Shown here: positions 3,848 to 42,752 of the stretch, in pieces
How positions within the stretch are numbered: position 1 is the stretch's first letter
How the letters are laid out: each line of letters begins with the position of its first letter
Source: a virus
Lineage: Duplodnaviria; Caudoviricetes
Virus record (IMG/VR): IMGVR_UViG_3300026549_000004
Coordinates: 5,916 to 69,915 of that record
DNA: 64,000 nt
Strand: one strand, 5' to 3'
Made by a program: the position numbers and the translations under genes
The notes under the pieces: generated by a model
What the model saw: the letters and a program-made list of their open reading frames with translations, nothing else
Database searches by the model: none
Told to the model about the DNA's origin: nothing

Positions 3848-3955
3848 GTTTTACCCTCCTATATTAAATTGTTTTTAGTTTCCACACCGGCCGGAAAGAT
3901 CCGGCCACGCTTGCGGCCTAAATGGCTTTTTATAGTCGCCGCAACGACTGAAGTA

Positions 3956-7517: not shown

Positions 7518-8051
7518 ATGGCACGATTGAAACTTTCTCCTCCGTGGGACATCTATTATCGGGAATTAAACTTATTGTTAGGATCAGATCCTGAGATCCA
7601 GATTCTATACGATGAGTATGAACAGGAAATCAAGATTTATTCCGAAAACGAAGCCAAGACCGATGCATTGAACGCCATTCTTCCGTCCGAGAAGGGGTTC
7701 GGCAATGTCAAGCTGACCATCACAATTGTCCCGGCTAACAGCAAACGGCTGAGAACCAAGGAATACTCACCTGAGTTGTTCGAAGACTTATTTGAAGGAA
7801 ATTCATGTGTCGCTGACATTGAGCATAGCACCGGCATTTACGAAGCAACATACGTTGTCTTTGTGAAGGAAGTTGTCCAGTACCACAACGATGACATCGG
7901 AGACATCAACGGCAACTGCTCTACCCTGTATCAGGATATTGCTGAAAGGATCTTTGAGAATCATCCCGGAGTCCATTTCTGTACAGCATCGTTACCGGAA
8001 CTTCCCTTTATGACAACGACCGCAGAGGCTACTCGTTACGGTTGCGTGTAA
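7518..8051 (+). CDS. Conserved phage hypothetical protein
   Basis: RBS AGAAAGGAG; 177-aa ORF. Confidence 0.75.
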   Translation: MARLKLSPPWDIYYRELNLLLGSDPEIQILYDEYEQEIKIYSENEAKTDALNAILPSEKGFGNVKLTITIVPANSKRLRTKEYSPELFEDLFEGNSCVADIEHSTGIYEATYVVFVKEVVQYHNDDIGDINGNCSTLYQDIAERIFENHPGVHFCTASLPELPFMTTTAEATRYGCV

Positions 8052-8060
8052 TATAGAGTG

Positions 8061-8143
8061 CGGCAGATATGCAAGTGGTTAAAGCAGGCAGACTGTAAAT
8101 CTGTCCCCTTCGGGGTTCGATGGTTCAAATCCGTCTCTGCCGA
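8061..8143 (+). tRNA. tRNA-Tyr(GTA), long variable arm, C1:G72, no encoded CCA
   Basis: Cloverleaf CGGCAGA/TCTGCCG; D arm TGC/GCA; GCAGA-CTGTAAA-TCTGT; T arm GATGG-TTCAAAT-CCGTC; discriminator A. Confidence 0.92.
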
Positions 8144-8640
8144 GTTTCCCTGACGAGGGGTTGTGTGGACGCACACAAGGCAACAGGCCGTGGGTTTAGC
8201 AACTTGCGGTATACCTAAAGATGCTTGGTATTGTTGCCAACCGTCCAACCGCATGAGGTGAGGAGGTTAAATAATACCCACATGCACATTGCTTAGATTA
8301 GTGAAACATCGAATGGTGCGTAGCTGGTTGGTTGAAAGCTATTCCAAGGCAGTGAGGAAGTAAACAACATTCTGTATAGCCCTATAATCATCAGTATGAG
8401 CCACGATGATCATGTGGTTTTGGAATTCCTGAGGACGAGTGTGCCGACACTTATAAAACGGCTGTGAAGTCCATCACGGATAGACGGAAACGGACATAAC
8501 ACAGTATGGGAACTGATGTGTCGCTTGTACATCGGTGGCAGAGGGGGAATGCACTGACCGAAAGCTCTGTAGAGTAGTCGGAACAGGTCGAGTGGTTCAA
8601 ATCCGCTCCCGGTGTAGTGTGTGTTTGGTATCCAAATACA
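8144..8640 (+). ncRNA. Candidate large structured ncRNA (GOLLD/ROOL-like class)
   Basis: ORF-free; many nested stems, a potential pseudoknot and a 3' T-loop hairpin GAGTGG-TTCAAAT-CCGCTC; located between tRNAs. Confidence 0.65.
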
Positions 8641-8691
8641 TTACTCTACCTTTCGTGCGGTCTTGGGGAGAACCGTAAATCTCCCCAACAT

Positions 8692-8805
8692 GCCAGCATG
8701 GTGTATTTCAAGCCGAGCGGTTGTGTGGCAGCCGACATTCCTTGCCTTTAGACGGGACAACTGCCATGACACTTGAAATAACAGGTTCGATTCCTGTAGC
8801 TGGCT
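8692..8805 (+). ncRNA. tRNA-like element (acceptor stem + T arm, long arm replacing D and anticodon arms)
   Basis: GCCAGC/GCTGGC; TATTTCAAG/CTTGAAATA; GTGGCAG/CTGCCAT; ACAGG-TTCGATT-CCTGT. Confidence 0.6.
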
Positions 8806-8874
8806 TGTAGGTTTTATCCTACTTGTTTTAATCTCCTTTGCATGGGGTGGGTATAACACCTGCCCCTATATATC

Positions 8875-8946
8875 AGGGGTGTAGCCAAATGGTAAGGCAC
8901 AGGATTTTGATTCCTGGTATTATGGGTTCGAATCCCATCATCCTTG
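8875..8946 (+). tRNA. tRNA-Gln(TTG), no encoded CCA
   Basis: AGGGGTG/CATCCTT; CAGGA-TTTTGAT-TCCTG; ATGGG-TTCGAAT-CCCAT. Confidence 0.92.
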
Positions 8947-8959
8947 CTTGGAGGGCAAT

Positions 8960-9103
8960 ATGGATTCTATAACGAAAAACCTCATGATTGACCTTGGTAA
9001 AAATGCCGAGAAGATCGCCAAATTACTGAAAAAAGGCGATGTTGAACTGCGAAAAGACGGTAATAAAATCAAGGTAATCGCAATTTCAAAGAAACAGATG
9101 TAG
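8960..9103 (+). CDS. Small basic protein (47 aa) preceding terL
   Basis: RBS GGAGGG, ATG, TAG. Confidence 0.6.
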   Translation: MDSITKNLMIDLGKNAEKIAKLLKKGDVELRKDGNKIKVIAISKKQM

Positions 9104-9169: not shown

Positions 9170-10873
9170 TTGCTTTCTGAGCAAGAACAATTATTCGCAG
9201 ATGCATTTCAGCAGAAACTGTTGACTGAAGCTGATCCGATGGAATTGGATACAGGATTGATTCAGCAGTTTATCCTTTTTGGTCATCAGGTTATCCGGGA
9301 TAACTATGATAACCGTGGGCCGATCTTAACAATTTCAAATTATCTCAAGAGAAAATGTCAATATATCGTGTCCAATACGGACAAGAAGGGCAAACAGAAG
9401 ACTGCCGTGAAGACGATATGGGATCTCAGGCTTTTTGAGGCCCAGAATCGTCAGCTTGACAGTTATCTGCTATTCTTGGAGAAGAAAAGAGATCCGAAAG
9501 AGAAATTCTATCAGCCTAAAAGGAAACAGTTTTGGAAAACTGGCATAATTCCTGCTCTACAGGATATGCTTGATGATAAACTTGACTTGTTAACGATATC
9601 AATGCCTCCGGGAACTGGAAAGTCGACCATCAGCCGATTCTTTATAACAGGAGTCATTGGTTGGTTTCCGAATGAGTACAATTTGTTCTTCTCTCATTCA
9701 GACGGAATCACCAGAAAATATTATGACGATGCCCTAAAAATTGTTACTGATAGGTCCGAGTATGCTTGGCAACAGATCTTCCCGGATCTCAAGGTCAACC
9801 ACCAAAATGCCAAGGCACAGGAATTTAATGTCGGCAAAGAGAAGATTTTTAACTCTCTTCAATGCAGTACCAGGGGAAGTAATAACGCTGGTATGGTTCG
9901 TGCATCAAAGTATCTTCTTGTTGATGACATGATCGCAAAGATTGAAGAAGCACTAAACAAAACTACGTTAGACAAGTTGTGGGGAGTATATTCTACAGAC
10001 GCCCGACAAAGAAAGACTGTTGATGTAAACAAGAAACCATGCAAGGAAATCCACATCGCAACACGATGGTCAGTGCATGACATCATTGGACGGCTCCAAG
10101 TAATCTACGATGGTAATGAGCGGTGCCGATTCATTGCTATTCCTGACATTGATCCCGACACAGGTAAGTCGAACTTTGACTATGACTATCAGGGCTTCAC
10201 GACAGAGTTCTTTCACGACATTGAACTGACAATGGATGACATCTCTTACAGATGTCTTTATAAAAATTCGCCCATCGAAAGAGAGGGTCTTTTGTATCAT
10301 GAGGATGATTTACGGAGATTCTACTCTCTGCCGGATGGAGAACCTGATGCCATCATATCTGTCTGCGATACGAAGTCCAAGGGAATTGACTATATGGTTC
10401 TTCCTGTGTTGTATAAATATGGCGATGATTTCTATATGACTGATTGTGTTTGCGATGATAATTCTGACTTTGCGGTTCAGAAGAGAAAATTGACGGATAT
10501 TCTTGTCAATCACGGAGTTCAACAATGTGAATTCGAATCTAATGCCGGTGGAGATCGATTGGCTGCTGATGTTGCCGAAATGGTTAAGTCAGAAGGTGGT
10601 CGGTGCAACATTACCACCAAGGCTACCGAAACAAATAAAGAAACAAGAATTATCGTTAATTCCGATTGGATCAAGAAGCATGTGCTGTTTCGGTCAGAAG
10701 ACCAATACATGAAGAAGAGCGACTACGGAAGGTTTATGAATTTCCTGACAACATATACCGTAGCTGGAAAAAATTTACATGATGATGTTCCCGATTGCAT
10801 GGCGAACTTTGCACTGTTTGTTACTCGCAGTTTATATAGACGCAAGACAAGAATCATGAGAAGTCCGATATAA
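9170..10873 (+). CDS. terL: Terminase large subunit
   Basis: Walker A ISMPPGTGKST, Walker B LLVDD, nuclease VCDTKSKGIDY...HDDVPD. Confidence 0.93.
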   Translation: MLSEQEQLFADAFQQKLLTEADPMELDTGLIQQFILFGHQVIRDNYDNRGPILTISNYLKRKCQYIVSNTDKKGKQKTAVKTIWDLRLFEAQNRQLDSYLLFLEKKRDPKEKFYQPKRKQFWKTGIIPALQDMLDDKLDLLTISMPPGTGKSTISRFFITGVIGWFPNEYNLFFSHSDGITRKYYDDALKIVTDRSEYAWQQIFPDLKVNHQNAKAQEFNVGKEKIFNSLQCSTRGSNNAGMVRASKYLLVDDMIAKIEEALNKTTLDKLWGVYSTDARQRKTVDVNKKPCKEIHIATRWSVHDIIGRLQVIYDGNERCRFIAIPDIDPDTGKSNFDYDYQGFTTEFFHDIELTMDDISYRCLYKNSPIEREGLLYHEDDLRRFYSLPDGEPDAIISVCDTKSKGIDYMVLPVLYKYGDDFYMTDCVCDDNSDFAVQKRKLTDILVNHGVQQCEFESNAGGDRLAADVAEMVKSEGGRCNITTKATETNKETRIIVNSDWIKKHVLFRSEDQYMKKSDYGRFMNFLTTYTVAGKNLHDDVPDCMANFALFVTRSLYRRKTRIMRSPI

Positions 10874-19232: not shown

Positions 19233-20861
19233 ATGGCAGATAATGTTATTGACACCCTATCGATAGAAATCAAATCAACAAGTTCGTCAGCCAACAGAGC
19301 CATAAACTCTTTGGTCAGCGGTCTTGAGAAACTCGACAATGCCTTGAATTCCTACTCAGGAGGAGCATCTGCCTTTGAAGGTGCATTAAATAATCTTGAG
19401 AAGGGATTTAATCGTCTAAACAGCATCATCAATTCTGTAGACGTTGGAAAGCTGACAAGCATCTCAGGTGCGATCAATTCGCTGTCCAACGCATCGTCAA
19501 AAGCAAACGGTGATAATCTTGTCGGTCTTGCTAATGGCATCAGGGATGTTGCAAGTGCGTCAACAGGTATCAGTAATGGTTCGAATCTTGATGGCTTTAT
19601 AAAAACTGTGTCATCTTTTGGCTACAAAACTGTATCCAATGCGGCACAGAACATGCCACAGCTTTCCAAGGGGCTTCAGCAGTTAAGTGGGGTTACCATT
19701 CCGAACTTCGGAGACTTATCCGGCTTAAGCAATTTCATCAACACTATCAGTCAGCTTGGATTGAAGAAGGGAACGGGAGCTGCATTTAACATTCAGCCTC
19801 TTGTTGCCGGATTGCAACAGTTATACTCTGTGGCAGGTCAAGCACCGCCTGATGCTTCTGGCATACTGAACATTGCGAATGCGTTCTCCGTCATGGGAAG
19901 AGATACAACACTTCGTGCAGTTCAGAACATGCCACAGCTTGCCGATGCTTTCCGAAAACTGGTTTCTTCGTTAGCAAACGTGCCGAAAGTACGGTCCGAT
20001 GTGATTGCTCTGGCAAATGCCATGGCAAAAATGTCTGCCAACGGTTCAAAGGTAGGCAGTTCTTCAAGAAGCCTGTCAAGTGCGTTAAGGCAACAGCAGG
20101 CATCCCAAGAGAACCTTGCCAAGTCTTTCCGTAATATTATTTCCAATACACAAAAGACAAGCAAGGCAATCACAGGATTTGTCAAGAATCTGCTCTTCTC
20201 ACGGCAAGGTGCAGATCAAGCAGGCAGAAGTTATAGCACACTGGCTGCAAAAGTTGGTTTGCTATATGCCAAGTTTTGGATGCTTTTAAGAGCGGTCCGC
20301 ATGGTCGGCAGACTGATGGAAGTCGCATCGTCACTTACCGAAGTTCAGAATGTAGTTGATGCTACTTTCGGTAATATGTCGAAGAAAATTGAGGATTTTT
20401 CCAAGAATGCGATTAAAGACTTCGGTATGTCCGAACTGTCTGCTAAAACATTTGCATCGCAATTCCAAGCGATGGGAACTGCGATGGGTATTACAGGATC
20501 ACAGGTAGCTAATGCTCAAAAGATGCTGAATACCAAAAAGACCATGGAAGGTAATGTTTTGGGATATAATGCTGCTTCAAAGTCTATGGCTGACATGTCA
20601 GTGAATTTAACGAAGTTAACCGCTGATATGGCTTCGTTCTACAACGTGTCTCAAGAGACAGTTGCCAAGGCTTTGCAGAGTGGTGTAATGGCTGGACAAA
20701 CCAGACCACTAAGACAATACGGTATTGATCTTTCCCAAGCGACATTACAAGAGTGGGCATTAAACCACGGAATACAGGCGAACTTTAAGACAATGACGCA
20801 GGCTCAAAAAGCCATGATAAGATATCAATATGTGATGAGTCAGAGTGCGAAAGCCCAAGGT
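19233..20861 (+). CDS. Tape measure protein, exon 1 (543 codons, ends ...AKAQG)
   Basis: TMP repeats; the frame stops shortly after entering intron 1. Confidence 0.88.
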
Positions 20862-21185
20862 AGTCGGGTGGTAGCGTGATCAATGCTTAGTTATCATCCT
20901 TGCCGTCTACGGTGAATCCAACAAGTAGACCGTAGATTATAACCGAAGGATTAAGCGGAGAACTGCTTTGCAAGCACAATCCGAGAGTGAAGGTCATCCG
21001 CAAAAAGATGGTCAACCGCAACGCATAGATGGTGATCCTTATGCTGAGATGCATAAGACCATAACCCATCCAAGAGACTTCGGCATCGGTTGGAATGTTC
21101 CGCAGAGGAACATGGTGAAAATATATGCTCGTCTATACTGTAATGGTATAGGGTATGGATAAAAAGCCATGCCATGAAGATTACG
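20862..21185 (+). ncRNA. Group I intron 1 (324 nt, no ORF)
   Basis: Exon ends in U, intron ends in G; P4 CGGA/TCCG; P3 AAGGAT/ATCCTT; P7 GCATA(21023)/TATGC(21124). Confidence 0.82.
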
Positions 21186-21206
21186 GACTTCGCTCGCACT
21201 TCCGGT
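21186..21206 (+). CDS. Tape measure protein micro-exon 2 (21 nt, DFARTSG)
   Basis: GACTTCGCTCGCACTTCCGGT restores the QG-DFARTSG-TWxNQ tape-measure motif in frame. Confidence 0.85.
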
Positions 21207-21497
21207 AGAATAAAACGTGCCGCCTAACACAGTAATGTGTTATGGAAAAACCGGGCAATATCGGTGAATCCTAAGTTCAATGAATATGGCAACACCGAGA
21301 TAACACAGGGAATTAAAGAGCCTTGTGCATCGTAGAGAGTAGGAACTGAAACTGTTTTAGCAGAATATAATGTTTCCCAAGAGTGTCCGGCATCCCAAGA
21401 GGATGATGATGTACTCCAACCTGGGGATGAAATAACATCCCATCATGCGAGGAAACTCCCAGAAATGTAGGATAAAAAGCCTGCATGGTAATATTGG
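21207..21497 (+). ncRNA. Group I intron 2 (291 nt, no ORF)
   Basis: IGS ACGTGCCG (21215-21222) pairs both exon ends (CGGU|ACGU); P3 CCGGGCA/TGTCCGG; P4 TCGGTG/CACCGA; P7 GAGTA/TACTC; terminal G. Confidence 0.88.
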
Positions 21498-24188
21498 ACG
21501 TGGCATAATCAGATTGTTATCTTAAAACAGCAGTTACAACAGCTTGCGGCAGTCATTGGTTCAGGCTTAATACAAGCCATAAAACCATTCGTACAACAAT
21601 TTAACGCAGCCCTGTCCGGGTTGATTGCATTTGCACAGAAAGTAGTCAACGCATTAGGCAAAATCTTTGGATGGGAGATGGAAGTCAACACCAAAGGACT
21701 TGCCATTGATGATGATGCTATCGAAGATGGTGCAGATGCTATGGGTAACCTTGGTGATGCAGCCGATAAAGCATCCAAATCCACCAAGGAACTGAACAAA
21801 CAGCTACAGGGCTTTGATAAGCTGAATGTCCTGACCACAAAGAAAGATAATTCTTCATCCAAGAAAAAGGACGATGATTCGAAGTCTGGAACTGGAACGG
21901 CTGTCGTAGACACAGGAGATGCTACCGCAGCACTCAAGAAAACCAAGGGTGTATTTGAATCTGAGATTGACAACCTGTTTGATCTTGGAAGATACATCAG
22001 CAATGCTCTGTCAAAACAGATGGAGAAGATTAACTGGAATGCGGTTTACGAAAAGGCAAGGAGTTTTGGAGCAGGTCTTGCGAACTTCCTAAACGGATTG
22101 ATCACGCCAAGGCTTTTCTATAACGTAGGAAGAACAATCTCAAGTTCAATCAGTACGGCTTTCCATTTCCTTGATTCGTTTGGTCAGACGTTTGATTGGA
22201 AAAACTTCGGAAAGTCTATCGGTGCCGGTATCAATGGATTTCTCGCAGGATTCGATTGGGTAACCATCAAGAGTGCTGCGAAGAATTGGGGATCTGGACT
22301 TGCCGATACAATCATGAGTGCAGTGGCAGAAACCGATTTCCATGGCATTGGCGAAGCACTGATGCATGCCCTTGATACGGCACTGACCTTTGCTTTCGAG
22401 CTTGGAAGTGGACTTGATTTCACGGAAATCGGTACAAGGCTTGCTGATGGTATCAATGGAGCAATCGAAAACTTCCCAGCAGAGAAATTTGCTAATACCA
22501 TTGACGAATGGGTTCAAGGTCTTTGGGATATGATTGTTTCGTGCCTAAGTCAGATTCACTGGGATGACCTTGGCGAAAAGATCAAGGAATTTGTTGGCAA
22601 CATTGATCCAAAGACATGGCGAATTCTGGTTGGTGGACTGATATTACTGAAGGCTGGTAGTTTTGCTATATCTCTTTCAGAGGAAATAATTAAGCAGGCC
22701 GGGTTAAACATTGCTACGTCATTGGCTGCAAAACTTCCTGGAATTTTAGGTGGTAACGCAGCTCTTCAGGGAGCTATCGGTACTGGCCTTGGAGACGCAG
22801 CAGCAGCTGCCACGGGTGGTGGAGCATTGGCTGCAGATGGTGCAGGAGCAGCAGCAGAGGGAGCAGGAGCAGCAACGGCACTTGAAGGGCTTGGTGCATC
22901 TGCAGGAGCAGCGGCAGCCCCAATAGGGGTGCTTGTGGCTTTGCTTGCATCTCTTGCTGTTGGCCTTGGATATGTTTATGCAACATCGGAAGAAGTCAGA
23001 CAGGGTTTTTCGGATGCAGTAACTACAATTCAAGAATCCATGCAACCAGCTTTGCAGTTTATGACCGACACGGTTCTTCCAGACATCCAAAATGGATTCC
23101 AAGGATTGATGGATATATTATCGCCACTTGGGGATTTTCTTAACGATGTGTTTAAATCCATATGGATTGATATGATTAATCCCGGATTAGAGTATTTAGG
23201 CACAACAATTCTGCCCCTGTTGACGGATGTGTTTGAGGAATTGTGGAATCAGGTATTGGTTCCGTTAGGCAAATTCTTGGGTGATGTGTTCAGACCAATT
23301 ATCAGCACATTGTCAAAAGTGCTTGGTACGTTGTGGAAGAATGTAGTAGTTCCTCTCGCTAAAGCGGTTGGCACAGTTCTTGGTGGTGCTTTTGAAATTA
23401 TTGGCACTATATTCAAAAATGTTATCATACCAATTGTTAATGTAGTTATAAAAGTATTCAGCTTTTTGTGGAATAATGTGTTGGTTCCAGTAGGTAAGTT
23501 TGTTTCCACAGTTTTAGGGCCGGTATTTGAAACTGCATTTAAAGCGATTGGAGATGTAATAGGGAATATTACAGAAATATTTAGCGGTCTGATTGATTTT
23601 ATTTCTGGAGTGTTTTCCGGGGATTGGAAAAAGGCATGGAATGGCATTAAGAAGGTATTTAAGGGAATATGGGATACACTTGCAACAATTGTTAAAACTC
23701 CCATCAATTTGATTATAGGATTGTTTGAAGGACTTGTTAATGGAATTATCGGTGCCTTTAATGCGATAAAACGTGCGTTGAATCATCTCCATTTCACAGT
23801 TCCTGATTGGGTTCCTGGCATTGGTGGCTCAGAATTCGGATTCAATTTTAGCATGACATCAAAAATGAAGATCCCACGCCTTGAAAAAGGTGGATTCCTT
23901 CCGTATGGATCATCGATGTTCATCGCAGGTGAACACGGAATACCTGAGTTGCTTGGTACTGTCAATGGCAAGAATGCCGTAGCAGGCGGTGCTGAAATCA
24001 CAGGTATTCGTGATGAAATCCACGATTCCAGTAATCGTCAGCTTGCCAACGATAATCGGATTATTCAGTTGTTGACAATCATAGCAGAAAAGGAATTCGG
24101 CATCACACAAGATGCTATGTTCCGAGCAGTAAGAAACAGTGCTTCTGACTATACGATGCGTACAGGCAGAGGTGCTTTTGAATTTTAG
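21498..24188 (+). CDS. Tape measure protein, exon 3 (spliced product about 1446 aa)
   Basis: Frame is open from 21498 (TWHNQIVILKQQ...) into track ORF 21621..24188. Confidence 0.88.
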   Translation, partial: TWHNQIVILKQQLQQLAAVIGSGLIQAIKPFVQQFNAALSGLIAFAQKVVNALGKIFGWEMEVNTKGLAIDDDAIEDGADAMGNLGDAADKASKSTKELNKQLQGFDKLNVLTTKKDNSSSKKKDDDSKSGTGTAVVDTGDATAALKKTKGVFESEIDNLFDLGRYISNALSKQMEKINWNAVYEKARSFGAGLANFLNGLITPRLFYNVGRTISSSISTAFHFLDSFGQTFDWKNFGKSIGAGINGFLAGFDWVTIKSAAKNWGSGLADTIMSAVAETDFHGIGEALMHALDTALTFAFELGSGLDFTEIGTRLADGINGAIENFPAEKFANTIDEWVQGLWDMIVSCLSQIHWDDLGEKIKEFVGNIDPKTWRILVGGLILLKAGSFAISLSEEIIKQAGLNIATSLAAKLPGILGGNAALQGAIGTGLGDAAAAATGGGALAADGAGAAAEGAGAATALEGLGASAGAAAAPIGVLVALLASLAVGLGYVYATSEEVRQGFSDAVTTIQESMQPALQFMTDTVLPDIQNGFQGLMDILSPLGDFLNDVFKSIWIDMINPGLEYLGTTILPLLTDVFEELWNQVLVPLGKFLGDVFRPIISTLSKVLGTLWKNVVVPLAKAVGTVLGGAFEIIGTIFKNVIIPIVNVVIKVFSFLWNNVLVPVGKFVSTVLGPVFETAFKAIGDVIGNITEIFSGLIDFISGVFSGDWKKAWNGIKKVFKGIWDTLATIVKTPINLIIGLFEGLVNGIIGAFNAIKRALNHLHFTVPDWVPGIGGSEFGFNFSMTSKMKIPRLEKGGFLPYGSSMFIAGEHGIPELLGTVNGKNAVAGGAEITGIRDEIHDSSNRQLANDNRIIQLLTIIAEKEFGITQDAMFRAVRNSASDYTMRTGRGAFEF

Positions 24189-31865: not shown

Positions 31866-33098
31866 TTGGACTGGCTTAGTAGGAAAACCGAAAAGACAGA
31901 GGATAAGCAAAGAATGAAACGCATTAAAGATATATGGAAAAACGTAGTTGATGAAAACAACGCTTATATTGCATTGGTTGAAGGAACAAAAAGAAAGCGT
32001 TCCAAAAGAAGCGTTAAAAAACTTCTTTATTGTGACGAAGAAGTAGCAAAAGACAGGACAAAATGGCACAGGATAGACCCTGTTAAAGGGAGAAGATACG
32101 CCAAAAACATTGTGGCTAAACTCCAGAACGGAACATGGGTTCACGCCAAGCCGAGATATGAACACCGCTATTGCAAAAACAGAGCATCCAGCGGAGGTAA
32201 ATGGCGAGACTTGTATGTCCCGACACTGGAAGACCACGTAATTCACCACATGGTTATGAGTGCAAGCATGAAAGCATTCACAAAAGGGATGCACCCACAT
32301 TGTTGCGGTTCTGTTCCAAACAGAGGAATCAGACATATTGCAAAAACAGTATCACATTGGATGCAGGACGATCTTCAGTGTCGATATTTTGTGAAGCTGG
32401 ACATCAAGAAATTTTTTGACAGCATTGACGCTGATATCTTGAAGACAAAACTTCGACAAAAAATCAAGGATAAAAACGTGCTTCAAATTCACGATGCTAT
32501 CATTGATTCTGCTCCTGTTGCCTGCCCTGTTGGCTATTACCCGTCACCATGGTATGCGAATCTGTACCTTGAAGATCTGGACTGGCATGTTGAACAACAT
32601 TTATACAAAGAACGGAGAGGAAAAAGAATCAAATTTGTTCGCCACTTTCTCAGGTATGTTGACGATATTTTGCTGATCGGAACATCTAAAGCAGACCTGT
32701 ACAAGGCTATCGCAAGCATCAAAAAATATCTTATGGACAACTATTCTCTTGAAATCAAAAATTCATGGGAGATTAAAAAAATTGGAAAACATGAGATGGT
32801 TGATGGAGAATGGAGATTAAAAAAAGATACTTACTGGTGTGATATAGGTGGTTATAAATTCTGCAAAGACGCAACTATCATGAGGGATGGGATCTATCTT
32901 TCGACCAAGAGACTTGCGAAGAAAATGGGAAAACAGGAATATTATACTTTGCATCAATGTCAGTCCATCAACGCCAAAGTCGCATGGGCAGAGCAATGCA
33001 ATTCCAAAAATTTTATTCAAAAGGACGTTCTTCCATATGTCAACCTTAAGCAAACGAAAGGAGTTATAAGCCGTGTGGACGCTAACAAGCAACGGTGA
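31866..33098 (+). CDS. DGR reverse transcriptase (probable ATG at 31914)
   Basis: KLDIKKFFDSI, VGYYPSPWYANLYL, RYVDD; adjacent to the TR/VR. Confidence 0.93.
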   Translation: MDWLSRKTEKTEDKQRMKRIKDIWKNVVDENNAYIALVEGTKRKRSKRSVKKLLYCDEEVAKDRTKWHRIDPVKGRRYAKNIVAKLQNGTWVHAKPRYEHRYCKNRASSGGKWRDLYVPTLEDHVIHHMVMSASMKAFTKGMHPHCCGSVPNRGIRHIAKTVSHWMQDDLQCRYFVKLDIKKFFDSIDADILKTKLRQKIKDKNVLQIHDAIIDSAPVACPVGYYPSPWYANLYLEDLDWHVEQHLYKERRGKRIKFVRHFLRYVDDILLIGTSKADLYKAIASIKKYLMDNYSLEIKNSWEIKKIGKHEMVDGEWRLKKDTYWCDIGGYKFCKDATIMRDGIYLSTKRLAKKMGKQEYYTLHQCQSINAKVAWAEQCNSKNFIQKDVLPYVNLKQTKGVISRVDANKQR

Positions 33099-41282: not shown

Positions 41283-42752
41283 CCAATTCTCGGAAGAATA
41301 CCCCCACTTCTAAGCGAAGCGAAAGTGGGGGATGAATGCCGATTGCTTTTACTGAAACTATTGACGTTCAGTAAAATATATGCTATAATAGATACATAGG
41401 AAATGTCCTAAATCTAAAAGGAAGGAGAAAGACTATGTATCTAACGGTAAAGCAACAAGCGAAACATCTATCAAAGGAAGAATACAGCATTTTGAGAGAA
41501 TTGTGCCATACAGCAAAAAATCTTGCCAATGAAGCAATCTACAATGTCCGTCAGTATTACTTCACAGAGAGAGAATATCTAAAATACGAAAAGAATTACG
41601 CATTGCTGAAAGACAGTCCCAATTACAAAATGCTCAACTCCAATATGGCACAGCAGATTCTGAAAGAAGTGGACGGCTCATTCAAAAGCTTTTTCGGGCT
41701 GCTGAAACTGGCAAAAAAAGGCAAATATTCTTTCAGAGACTGTAAATTACCGCATTATCTGCCAAAAGACGGATTCACAACACTCGTGATAGGATTTGTC
41801 AGGCTTAGCGGAAACAAGCTGATTTTGCCGTATTCCAATACATTCAAGAAAACACATAAGCCTGTTGAAATCAAAATGCCGCCGATACTTGCTGGAAAGC
41901 ATATCAAGGAAATCAGAATCATTCCGAAATCAGGAGCAAGGTTCTTTGAAATTCAGTATACTTACGAAGTTGAATGTGTTCAGAGAAATCTTAATAAAAA
42001 CAATGCACTTGCTCTGGATTTGGGTGTGAATAATCTTGTGACTGCTGTATCAAATCAGGGCAGAAGCTTCATTATTGACGGCAGGAAGCTAAAAGCTGTC
42101 AATCAATGGTTCAACAAGGAAAATGCACGGCTGCAAGGTATCAAAGACAGACAGGGTGATAAAAGAAGAACAACAAACCGTCAGAAAATCTTAGCTGATA
42201 AAAGGAACAGACAAGTCAATGATTATATGAGCAAAACTGCAAGAAAAATCATTGATTATTGTATTGCTCATGATATTGGAACGCTTGTAATCGGATATAA
42301 TGAAACATTTCAGCGTAATTCTGACATGAACAAGCGTAATAATCAGAATTTTGTCAATATTTCGTATGGGAAACTGCGTTCCAAACTGGAATATCTTTGT
42401 GAACTGAATAGCATTGTTTTTGTAAAGCAGGAAGAAAGCTATACTTCAAAAGCATCATTCTGGGATAATGATACAATTCCTGTCTATAACGCAGATAATC
42501 CGAAGTCTTACAGTTTCAGCGGAAAAAGAGTGCAGAGAGGACTATACAGAACTGCTGACGGAAGATTACTCAATGCGGATGTCAACGGTGCATTAAATAT
42601 TTTGAGAAAAAGTAGCGTTGTGGACTTAACAGTCCTATACAGTAGTGGCGAAGTGGACACGCCTGTAAGAATAAGGGTTGCCTGAAAAGGTGGAAACTTA
42701 AATACCAATCTTCTTACGAAGCCCCCACCTCTACAGGTGGGGGAGAGTTCAC
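41283..42752 (+). mobile_element. IS200/IS605-family element, tnpB-only (IS1341-like)
   Basis: Follows TTTAT; left hairpin CCCCCACTT/AAGTGGGGG (41301-41331); right hairpin CCCCCACC/GGTGGGGG ending TTCAC; no tnpA. Left boundary is inferred. Confidence 0.88.
41435..42685 (+). CDS. tnpB: TnpB RNA-guided endonuclease
   Basis: N-terminal HTH, ALDLGVNN, EESYTSKAS, NADVNGALNI; own promoter TTGACG-N17-TATAAT at 41361-41389. Confidence 0.93.
   Translation: MYLTVKQQAKHLSKEEYSILRELCHTAKNLANEAIYNVRQYYFTEREYLKYEKNYALLKDSPNYKMLNSNMAQQILKEVDGSFKSFFGLLKLAKKGKYSFRDCKLPHYLPKDGFTTLVIGFVRLSGNKLILPYSNTFKKTHKPVEIKMPPILAGKHIKEIRIIPKSGARFFEIQYTYEVECVQRNLNKNNALALDLGVNNLVTAVSNQGRSFIIDGRKLKAVNQWFNKENARLQGIKDRQGDKRRTTNRQKILADKRNRQVNDYMSKTARKIIDYCIAHDIGTLVIGYNETFQRNSDMNKRNNQNFVNISYGKLRSKLEYLCELNSIVFVKQEESYTSKASFWDNDTIPVYNADNPKSYSFSGKRVQRGLYRTADGRLLNADVNGALNILRKSSVVDLTVLYSSGEVDTPVRIRVA

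Follow-up and report, generated by a model that had tools for sequence, protein, structure and literature searches.

What is encoded in the interval between the two tRNA genes of this phage, just upstream of its large terminase gene? The window analysed here, 64,000 nucleotides long, covers positions 5916-69915 of an IMG/VR phage genome that is complete at 69,915 bp and has terminal repeats. The phage is of the gut or rumen type. Clostridia MAGs from animal guts (Oscillospiraceae, Lachnospiraceae) hold prophage-like relatives of its terminase, and many relatives, at 78-95% identity, are found in ENA/Logan. Several of the terminase homologues carry LAGLIDADG intein domains.

An earlier, sequence-only reading of the interval saw a single ornate non-coding RNA of ~500 nt (8144-8640), possibly continuing to 8805. 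What had looked like one RNA is better divided into a module of ~385 nt (8144-8528) and a separate tRNA-like element (8529-8616). The cassette does continue, to ~8830: past this element come a pseudoknot, another tRNA-like element and a hairpin resembling a terminator. Judged against its relatives, the cassette is genuine and rare, and its central RNA is conserved and modular.

The account preferred here, with a probability of about 0.55, is that a non-coding RNA of ~385 nt has its own, stand-alone gene at 8144-8528. This RNA is probably structured, belongs to a family outside Rfam, sits in a tRNA operon upstream of the terminase gene, and would be released from that operon by tRNA punctuation.

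The interval and its relatives

The entire 69.9-kb genome holds only two tRNA genes, both on the plus strand and both recognized by ARAGORN and Rfam. These are tRNA-Tyr(GTA) at 8061-8143 (52 bits against the Rfam tRNA model, CCA not encoded) and tRNA-Gln(TTG) at 8875-8947. The first hairpin of the cassette starts 3 nt past the 3' end of tRNA-Tyr. Immediately downstream of the cassette region lie a small ORF and the large terminase gene (phrog_38, 9170-10873), the latter being the next large gene after tRNA-Gln. CCA is encoded by none of the tRNAs or of the tRNA mimics described below.

Terminase-guided and pattern searches found related sequence in only three other IMG/VR contigs. One of these, L003/L008, is a 70-kb phage having the same tRNA-Tyr/tRNA-Gln frame. 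In L007/L094, the cassette stands elsewhere in the genome, 3' of a dUTPase gene and a small gene, and 5' of a ParB-like gene. A partner protein encoded beside the RNA was considered and dropped, since the neighbours in the window differ from those in L007. In the last, L004/L006, the same two tRNAs stand closer together, and of the RNA module only a central block of ~40 nt is retained. Here, a 74-aa hydrophobic (membrane-type) ORF (L004 1671-1896) replaces most of the RNA between tRNA-Tyr and tRNA-Gln. It is followed by an ~85-nt mini-version that contains the ~40-nt block, and then by a terminator-like hairpin; the second tRNA-like element (TL2) is located after tRNA-Gln. Full copies of the cassette therefore number three (window, L003, L007), the cores of two being nearly identical.

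Wider searches gave no further members. Neither blastn against 50,697 phage records (INPHARED) nor BLAST of 802 sampled genomes from two Clostridia orders found a homologue, and an nhmmer profile search of 125 related or neighbouring loci added none. The exact pattern of the ~40-nt block recurred in IMG/VR in the same contigs only, in the JGI metagenomes as one chance match in coding DNA, and in the GTDB species genomes not at all. Given that absence from GTDB, an attP site or a host tRNA fragment was dropped as a candidate identity. Scanning IMG/VR for the TL2 motif gave chance coding matches only. A published phage catalogue (PMC10690425) counts 10,006 csRNAs and 8,495 IMG/VR candidate RNAs.

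The sequence-only reading had named GOLLD, ROOL, RNase P and tmRNA as families to check with cmscan. In this region Rfam 15 matched only the two tRNAs, at gathering thresholds and also at E<=10 with permissive filters (7900-9100). At E<=10, cmscan gave no match to RNase P, tmRNA, GOLLD, group I, group II, hammerhead or twister, and the ROOL model matched nothing in the whole phage genome. The sensitivity of Rfam in this phage is limited, as one of the two group I introns reported in the tape-measure gene (20700-21700) goes unmatched at E<=10. That is the first intron; the second (21181-21462) scores 38.2 bits, against a Rfam cut-off of 50 bits.

Other elements of the window include a full-length pistol self-cleaving ribozyme (RF02679) in the early region, at 3882-3949 on the minus strand, scoring 62.2 bits against a cut-off of 34.5. 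A reverse transcriptase (RVT_1, 31866-33098) lies in the tail-fibre region, consistent with a diversity-generating retroelement, and a TnpB-like protein with OrfB_IS605 and Cas12f1-like TNB domains is encoded at 41435-42685. Among related loci, L041 carries a RAGATH-18 RNA and L088 an int-alpA RNA.

Neither strand of the interval 8144-8874 is coding. Its 731 nt contain no ORF longer than 72 aa, and 8144-8528 has 3-10 stops per frame in all six frames. Relatives differ from 8144-8528 by at least eight indels of 1-2 nt and by one of 50 nt, and substitutions among them show no 3-nt codon periodicity. A coding function for 8144-8528 was dropped, given stops in every frame, small indels and aperiodic substitutions.

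Folding energy no better than that of shuffled controls had been named in advance as a reason to abandon the RNA. Taken whole, 8144-8640 does barely better than such controls: its MFE has a z of -1.36 on the plus strand and -0.90 on the minus strand, and 11 of 100 shuffles fold as well. Parts of the cassette fare otherwise, 8144-8240 having a z of -3.2 and the pseudoknot region, 8640-8700, a z of -4.7. When the substitutions of L003 are laid on the MFE structure computed from the window only, eight double-compensatory pairs are seen where 1.3 are expected, and eight were reached in 0 of 2000 permutations. Pair retention exceeds chance on the plus strand (P 0.01) and not on the minus strand (P 0.49). 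This strand specificity fits an RNA that is transcribed with the tRNAs.

Elements of the cassette

The cassette opens with two adjacent plus-strand hairpins that have identical GACG loops, one at 8147-8160 (TCCCT/AGGGG) and one at 8161-8178 (TTGTGTG/CACACAA). Both had been picked out by eye, and both bear comparison well. All 11 of their 11 pairs are kept in three sequence versions, with four pairs changed on both sides; one position is U-A, G-C or C-G, depending on the version. In slid controls, pairing falls to 33-64%. Across 1.56 Mb of related sequence, no locus other than the three homologous ones has these twin hairpins.

A variable branched hairpin follows (8179-8238, plus strand), closed by GGCAACA/TGTTGCC (8179-8185/8232-8238). 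This stem, also proposed earlier, is present in the window but is reduced to GGTA..TACC in L003 and L007, where a 50-nt deletion leaves only the 10-nt GGTATATACC.

Next comes a sequence-conserved core of ~265 nt (8239-8504, plus strand), with 83-85% identity to L003 and L007. Its substitutions and indels concentrate in predicted loops, and invariant blocks of 14-24 nt are seen. The ~40-nt block at 8295-8335 consists of AGTGAAAC, a CATC-GAAT-GGTG hairpin and CGTAGCTGGTTGGTTGA. It is kept even in the distant relative L004 (E 5.5e-7), and its hairpin stem becomes CACC/GGTG and CAAC/GTTG in relatives.

The overall fold of the core is tentative. In a consensus of 69 predicted pairs, one is compensatory, nine are changed on one side and seven are broken, with a covariation term of approximately zero; as far as these few sequences can tell, covariation does not support the core fold. 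Several stems of the sequence-only reading may be judged on the same alignment. CTGTGA/TCACGG keeps one compensatory pair, and GCCAC/GTGGT is real in part. TTCCAAGG/TTTTGGAA is unsupported as it was drawn and is ambiguous, being rivalled by a local TTCC/GGAA hairpin and having a G.G mismatch in relatives. ACTGATGT/ACATCGGT is not supported: it is broken in L003, deleted in L007, and competes with the conserved acceptor stem of the first tRNA-like element. Its ACTGATGT arm lies in a variable linker (8505-8528, plus strand; 61-75% identity), which has a 10-nt deletion in L007.

Two further possible pairings within the core deserve mention. CCAACC (8245) is complementary to GGTTGG (8326), the potential pseudoknot of the sequence-only reading, and the CCAATC of relatives still pairs via G.U, with no compensatory change; a complementarity of 6 nt is, by itself, insignificant in a region this large. 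Positions 8422-8429 hold a perfect 8-nt palindrome, GGAATTCC, which in L003 and L007 has become GGAGCTTC by three substitutions that leave it self-complementary with G.U. By chance, ~1.5 perfect 8-nt palindromes are expected in 380 nt. Copies of the RNA might pair with one another at GGAATTCC, or the palindrome may simply be accidental.

The tRNA-type T-loop that the sequence-only reading placed in a terminal junction proves to be part of a complete tRNA-like element, TL1 (8529-8616, plus strand). TL1 has a 7-bp acceptor stem, a 3-bp D stem and a canonical T arm (GGTTCAAATCC). An arm whose length varies among versions, a 4-bp hairpin at its shortest and ~11 bp at its longest, takes the place of the anticodon arm, and the 7-nt anticodon loop is absent. 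None of the 15 pairs is lost in any of three versions, and five are changed on both sides, against 18-42% pairing for slid controls. ARAGORN calls TL1 at a relaxed threshold only, with an "11-nt intron", and the Rfam tRNA model (RF00005) gives no match to it at E<=10.

Downstream of TL1, a local hairpin, TGTGTTTGG-TAT-CCAAATACA (8620-8640, plus strand), is found in the window and L003 only. It is followed by an H-type pseudoknot (8658-8686, plus strand), whose stems are CGGT/ACCG (S1) and GGGGAGA/TCTCCCC (S2). The corresponding stems are CGGC/GCCG and GGGAGT/ACTCCC in L007, and CGGT/GCCG and GGTGTGT/ACACATC in L004.

The second tRNA-like element, TL2 (8692-8805, plus strand), has a 6-bp acceptor stem, a T arm (GGTTCGATTCC) and one long arm with helices H1 and H2. 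Its acceptor, H1, H2 and T stems are kept across three differing sequence versions; together with the pseudoknot, this makes six helices, all kept with three different sequences. Against the tRNA model, the T arm alone scores, with 12.4 bits (E 0.6), where membership needs at least 29 bits. Neither TL1 nor TL2 was accepted as a tRNA (RF00005), for which a cloverleaf with a 7-nt anticodon loop and at least 29 bits is expected. The long arm of TL2 contains an internal loop, CGA opposite NNTGAC, that is conserved in the window, L007 and L004. Its layout, in which C-GA precedes H2 on one strand and the opposite strand has a 3-nt bulge and GA past H2, appears to resemble that of a kink-turn. It could, as such, be a candidate binding site for an L7Ae-type protein. 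In L010-L092, the regions upstream of the terminase genes contain 43 orphan T-arms, which have acceptor strands to match but receive no tRNA call from ARAGORN.

The cassette ends in a weak terminator-like hairpin, GTAGG-TTTTAT-CCTAC (8807-8822, plus strand), then TTGTTTT, the whole spanning 8807-8832. The terminator call is weak because the count of such terminators is no greater than in shuffles. A conserved 9-bp hairpin, GGGGTGGGT-ATAAC-ACCTGCCCC (8844-8866, plus strand), precedes tRNA-Gln; in L007, it precedes the ParB-like gene.

On the evidence of these alignments, then, the twin hairpins, TL1, the pseudoknot and TL2 are clearly backed by compensatory changes.

Exchange, proposed release and rival readings

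The identities between copies form a mosaic. Between the window and L003, the flanks (tRNA-Tyr, TL1, spacer, pseudoknot, TL2, terminator and tRNA-Gln) are 93-100% identical, with the core at 83% and the 5' hairpins at 75%. Between L003 and L007, the pattern is reversed: the core is 97% identical and the flanking elements 44-75%. This implies that the stretch from 8144 to ~8528 was swapped in one piece, the breakpoints falling within the linker and where the tRNA meets the module. Exchange independent of the flanks, in turn, marks 8144-8528 as a discrete module. In L007, a different tRNA (9013-9081, minus strand; 48 bits in Rfam, without an ARAGORN call) sits 2 nt before the first hairpin. The RNA therefore begins 2-3 nt past a tRNA 3' end in two genomic contexts.

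How might such an RNA be made? In Firmicutes, RNase Z trims precursors that lack CCA, and RNase P cuts the 5' ends of tRNAs. Because the tRNAs and their mimics encode no CCA, and because these rules hold in Firmicutes, tRNA-punctuated release is the simplest model. Here, the operon would be transcribed from the plus strand, RNase Z would cut after the CCA-less tRNA-Tyr, and RNase P would cut at the 5' end of TL1. The two cuts together would fix the ends of the RNA, much as tRNA punctuation does elsewhere. Under this model TL1, and possibly TL2, would be processing signals, or might have roles of their own. Both fail the tRNA covariance model, so that their shape is the sole reason for supposing that RNase P and RNase Z would recognize them. 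Once freed, the RNA would presumably work in trans while the phage infects its host, like ROOL and GOLLD, which it most resembles by context; one terminase relative, L038, has a ROOL upstream of its terminase gene. One possibility is a scaffold, either self-associating or binding the tRNA machinery, centred on the invariant ~40-nt block.

A bolder version of this, against which the odds stand fairly clearly, is that 8144-8528 founds a new class of RNA-only machines, with TL1 and TL2 as RNase P and RNase Z excision signals. The machine might be a self-assembling particle of the ROOL/GOLLD kind, with CCAACC/GGUUGG and the self-complementary GGAATTCC (GGAGCTTC in relatives) as candidate contacts. 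Alternatively, it might be a docking platform, with tRNA elbows or tRNA-processing enzymes docking on the invariant ~40-nt block.

Other readings must be weighed against the stand-alone gene. The conserved sequence could be evolutionary debris, that is, decayed tRNA genes and spacer that look conserved through the recent kinship of four contigs, with structure in the tRNA-like pieces only. Every copy does come from a few closely numbered IMG samples, in related phages the tRNA islands commonly contain orphan T-arms and odd tRNA-like elements, the ~40-nt block looks like a tRNA D-arm (TAGCTGGTTGGTTGAAAGC), and the core lacks covariation. Debris would not, however, be expected to keep the ~40-nt block in L004 when its surroundings were replaced, nor to show compensatory changes in hairpins that are not tRNA-like, nor to spare long blocks while substitutions cluster in loops. 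The L003-L007 contrast between core and flanks likewise argues for selection on the module or for its recent transfer. We regard debris as unlikely. A catalytic RNA is a good deal less probable still. Here, a degenerate or free-standing group I-like element, or some other ribozyme, would account for the exchange by intron-like mobility; the module does move independently of its flanks, the phage has both a pistol ribozyme and tape-measure group I introns, and the Rfam group I model is not fully sensitive in it. Group I, group II, hammerhead, twister and RNase P were nonetheless unmatched at E<=10, inspection reveals neither a P3-P7 type core nor the conserved group I sequence elements, and no gene or RNA is interrupted by the module, because tRNA-Tyr is complete.

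Just as improbable as a ribozyme is a highly diverged and shortened ROOL or GOLLD homologue that the Rfam models missed. The genomic niche matches, namely a tRNA island of a phage, close to the terminase. Among terminase relatives, L038 (TerL 59% identity) has a bona fide ROOL at 1722-2318, which also served as a positive control (301.5 bits against a membership threshold of 99.1 bits). That ROOL is not strictly syntenic, because it lies ~1.7 kb upstream of the terminase gene. Short motifs are shared by eye with the ROOL consensus (AGUGAA, GAAUG.UG.GU...UUGG and GUAUA...GUA..AGCC), and a model family that misses one tape-measure intron at E<=10 might miss other RNAs. Yet these motifs are not collinear, because their order differs from that in ROOL; neither the permissive 1.2-kb search nor the search of the whole genome gave a ROOL or GOLLD match at E<=10; and 385 nt is far from the ~580 nt of ROOL or the 800 nt of GOLLD, with the 5'-3' terminal helix of ROOL not seen. 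Least credible of all is a site that acts as DNA, for example in packaging (pac) or replication, with the hairpins serving as inverted repeats for protein binding. Such a site would suit inverted repeats that are conserved and lie directly before a small ORF and the large terminase gene. It would not explain why G.U-type pairs are tolerated on the plus strand alone, nor why canonical T-loops, acceptor stems and an H-type pseudoknot, which are sensible in RNA only, are present; and in L007 the cassette does not adjoin a terminase gene.

The stand-alone RNA gene, if true, would be of interest for several reasons. ROOL and GOLLD have lately been shown to form RNA-only nanocages, and a third RNA from this niche, one unrelated to them and far smaller, would offer a simpler system in which to ask about the role of such RNAs. 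Clean tRNA and tRNA-like boundaries, exchange of the module from phage to phage, and the ~85-nt mini-version in L004 all add to its usefulness. The cassette would, in addition, furnish cases from nature in which tRNA mimics lacking an anticodon punctuate RNA processing in bacteria. Should the core have no conserved fold, the finding shrinks to a phage tRNA operon that carries a pseudoknot and a pair of unusual tRNA mimics.

Comparison with known RNA systems

The RNA is best filed as a new family among the structured RNAs of phage tRNA islands, neither ROOL nor GOLLD, its novelty being judged against Rfam. The sequence-only reading had offered a new class of structured non-coding RNA among phage tRNAs as its other option. 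This option is the one supported, by the non-coding status, the peripheral compensatory changes, the clustering of substitutions in loops and the modular exchange. A compact member of the GOLLD/ROOL class is unsupported, given no covariance-model match at E<=10 and motifs that are not collinear with those of ROOL.

Several other assignments were considered and rejected. For tmRNA, permuted forms included, default ARAGORN and Rfam gave none; relaxed ARAGORN offered a "permuted tmRNA" whose tag could not be identified, no credible tag reading frame being found in the cassette, and the acceptor stems lack G3.U70. A Y RNA of the YrlA type had no Rfam match, and the phage genome has no Ro60/TROVE domain at E<=1. 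For RNase P RNA, there was no match at E<=10, and the resemblances GAAGTCC and GAAACGGAC lie ~20 nt apart, unlike P4 strands. CUGANGA-like strings are present, but the remainder of a hammerhead core is absent, by inspection and by Rfam at E<=10. Group II domain 5 was dropped by inspection and for want of an Rfam match at E<=10. A group I intron (RF00028) had no match at E<=10, by a model that also missed one of the two tape-measure introns, and no interrupted gene was seen.

ROOL (RF03087) is a large multi-helix non-coding RNA of phages and prophages, first found in rumen metagenomes near tRNA islands and of unknown function (PMC5737381, PMC12286853). ROOL and GOLLD form RNA-only cages and lie near phage tRNA islands (PMC5737381, PMC12286853). 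The RNA described here shares the context of ROOL, that of a phage RNA adjoining tRNA genes, in this case between tRNA-Tyr and tRNA-Gln. It differs in form. ROOL has ~580 nt (581), six multistem junctions, three pseudoknots and a terminal closing helix, whereas the RNA here has ~385 nt, with no 5'/3' helix evident in its consensus fold, and has a tRNA on one side and an anticodon-less tRNA-like element on the other.

GOLLD (RF01998) is likewise a phage or prophage RNA found beside tRNAs, and some GOLLD RNAs carry tRNAs covalently in a linker region (PMC12286853). These linker tRNAs are comparable to the tRNA and tRNA-like punctuation here. GOLLD is, however, ~800 nt long and has a universally conserved 3' domain that is absent from the RNA here, which has no match to the model at E<=10.

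Phage T4 encodes RNAC and RNAD in its tRNA gene cluster, where they are matured with the tRNAs. These phage-encoded stable RNAs still have no known function (PMC9697503). They are much smaller (~120-140 nt) and come from another host group; the likeness drawn here is one of description.

The idea that a tRNA-like element can define the end of another RNA is familiar from mascRNA, where the tRNA-like element of MALAT1 sets the 3' end of an upstream long RNA via RNase P. In bacteria, tRNA-like modules are known from tmRNA and YrlA (PMC4201824). TL1 and TL2 are like these modules in keeping the acceptor stem and the T arm, without an anticodon loop.
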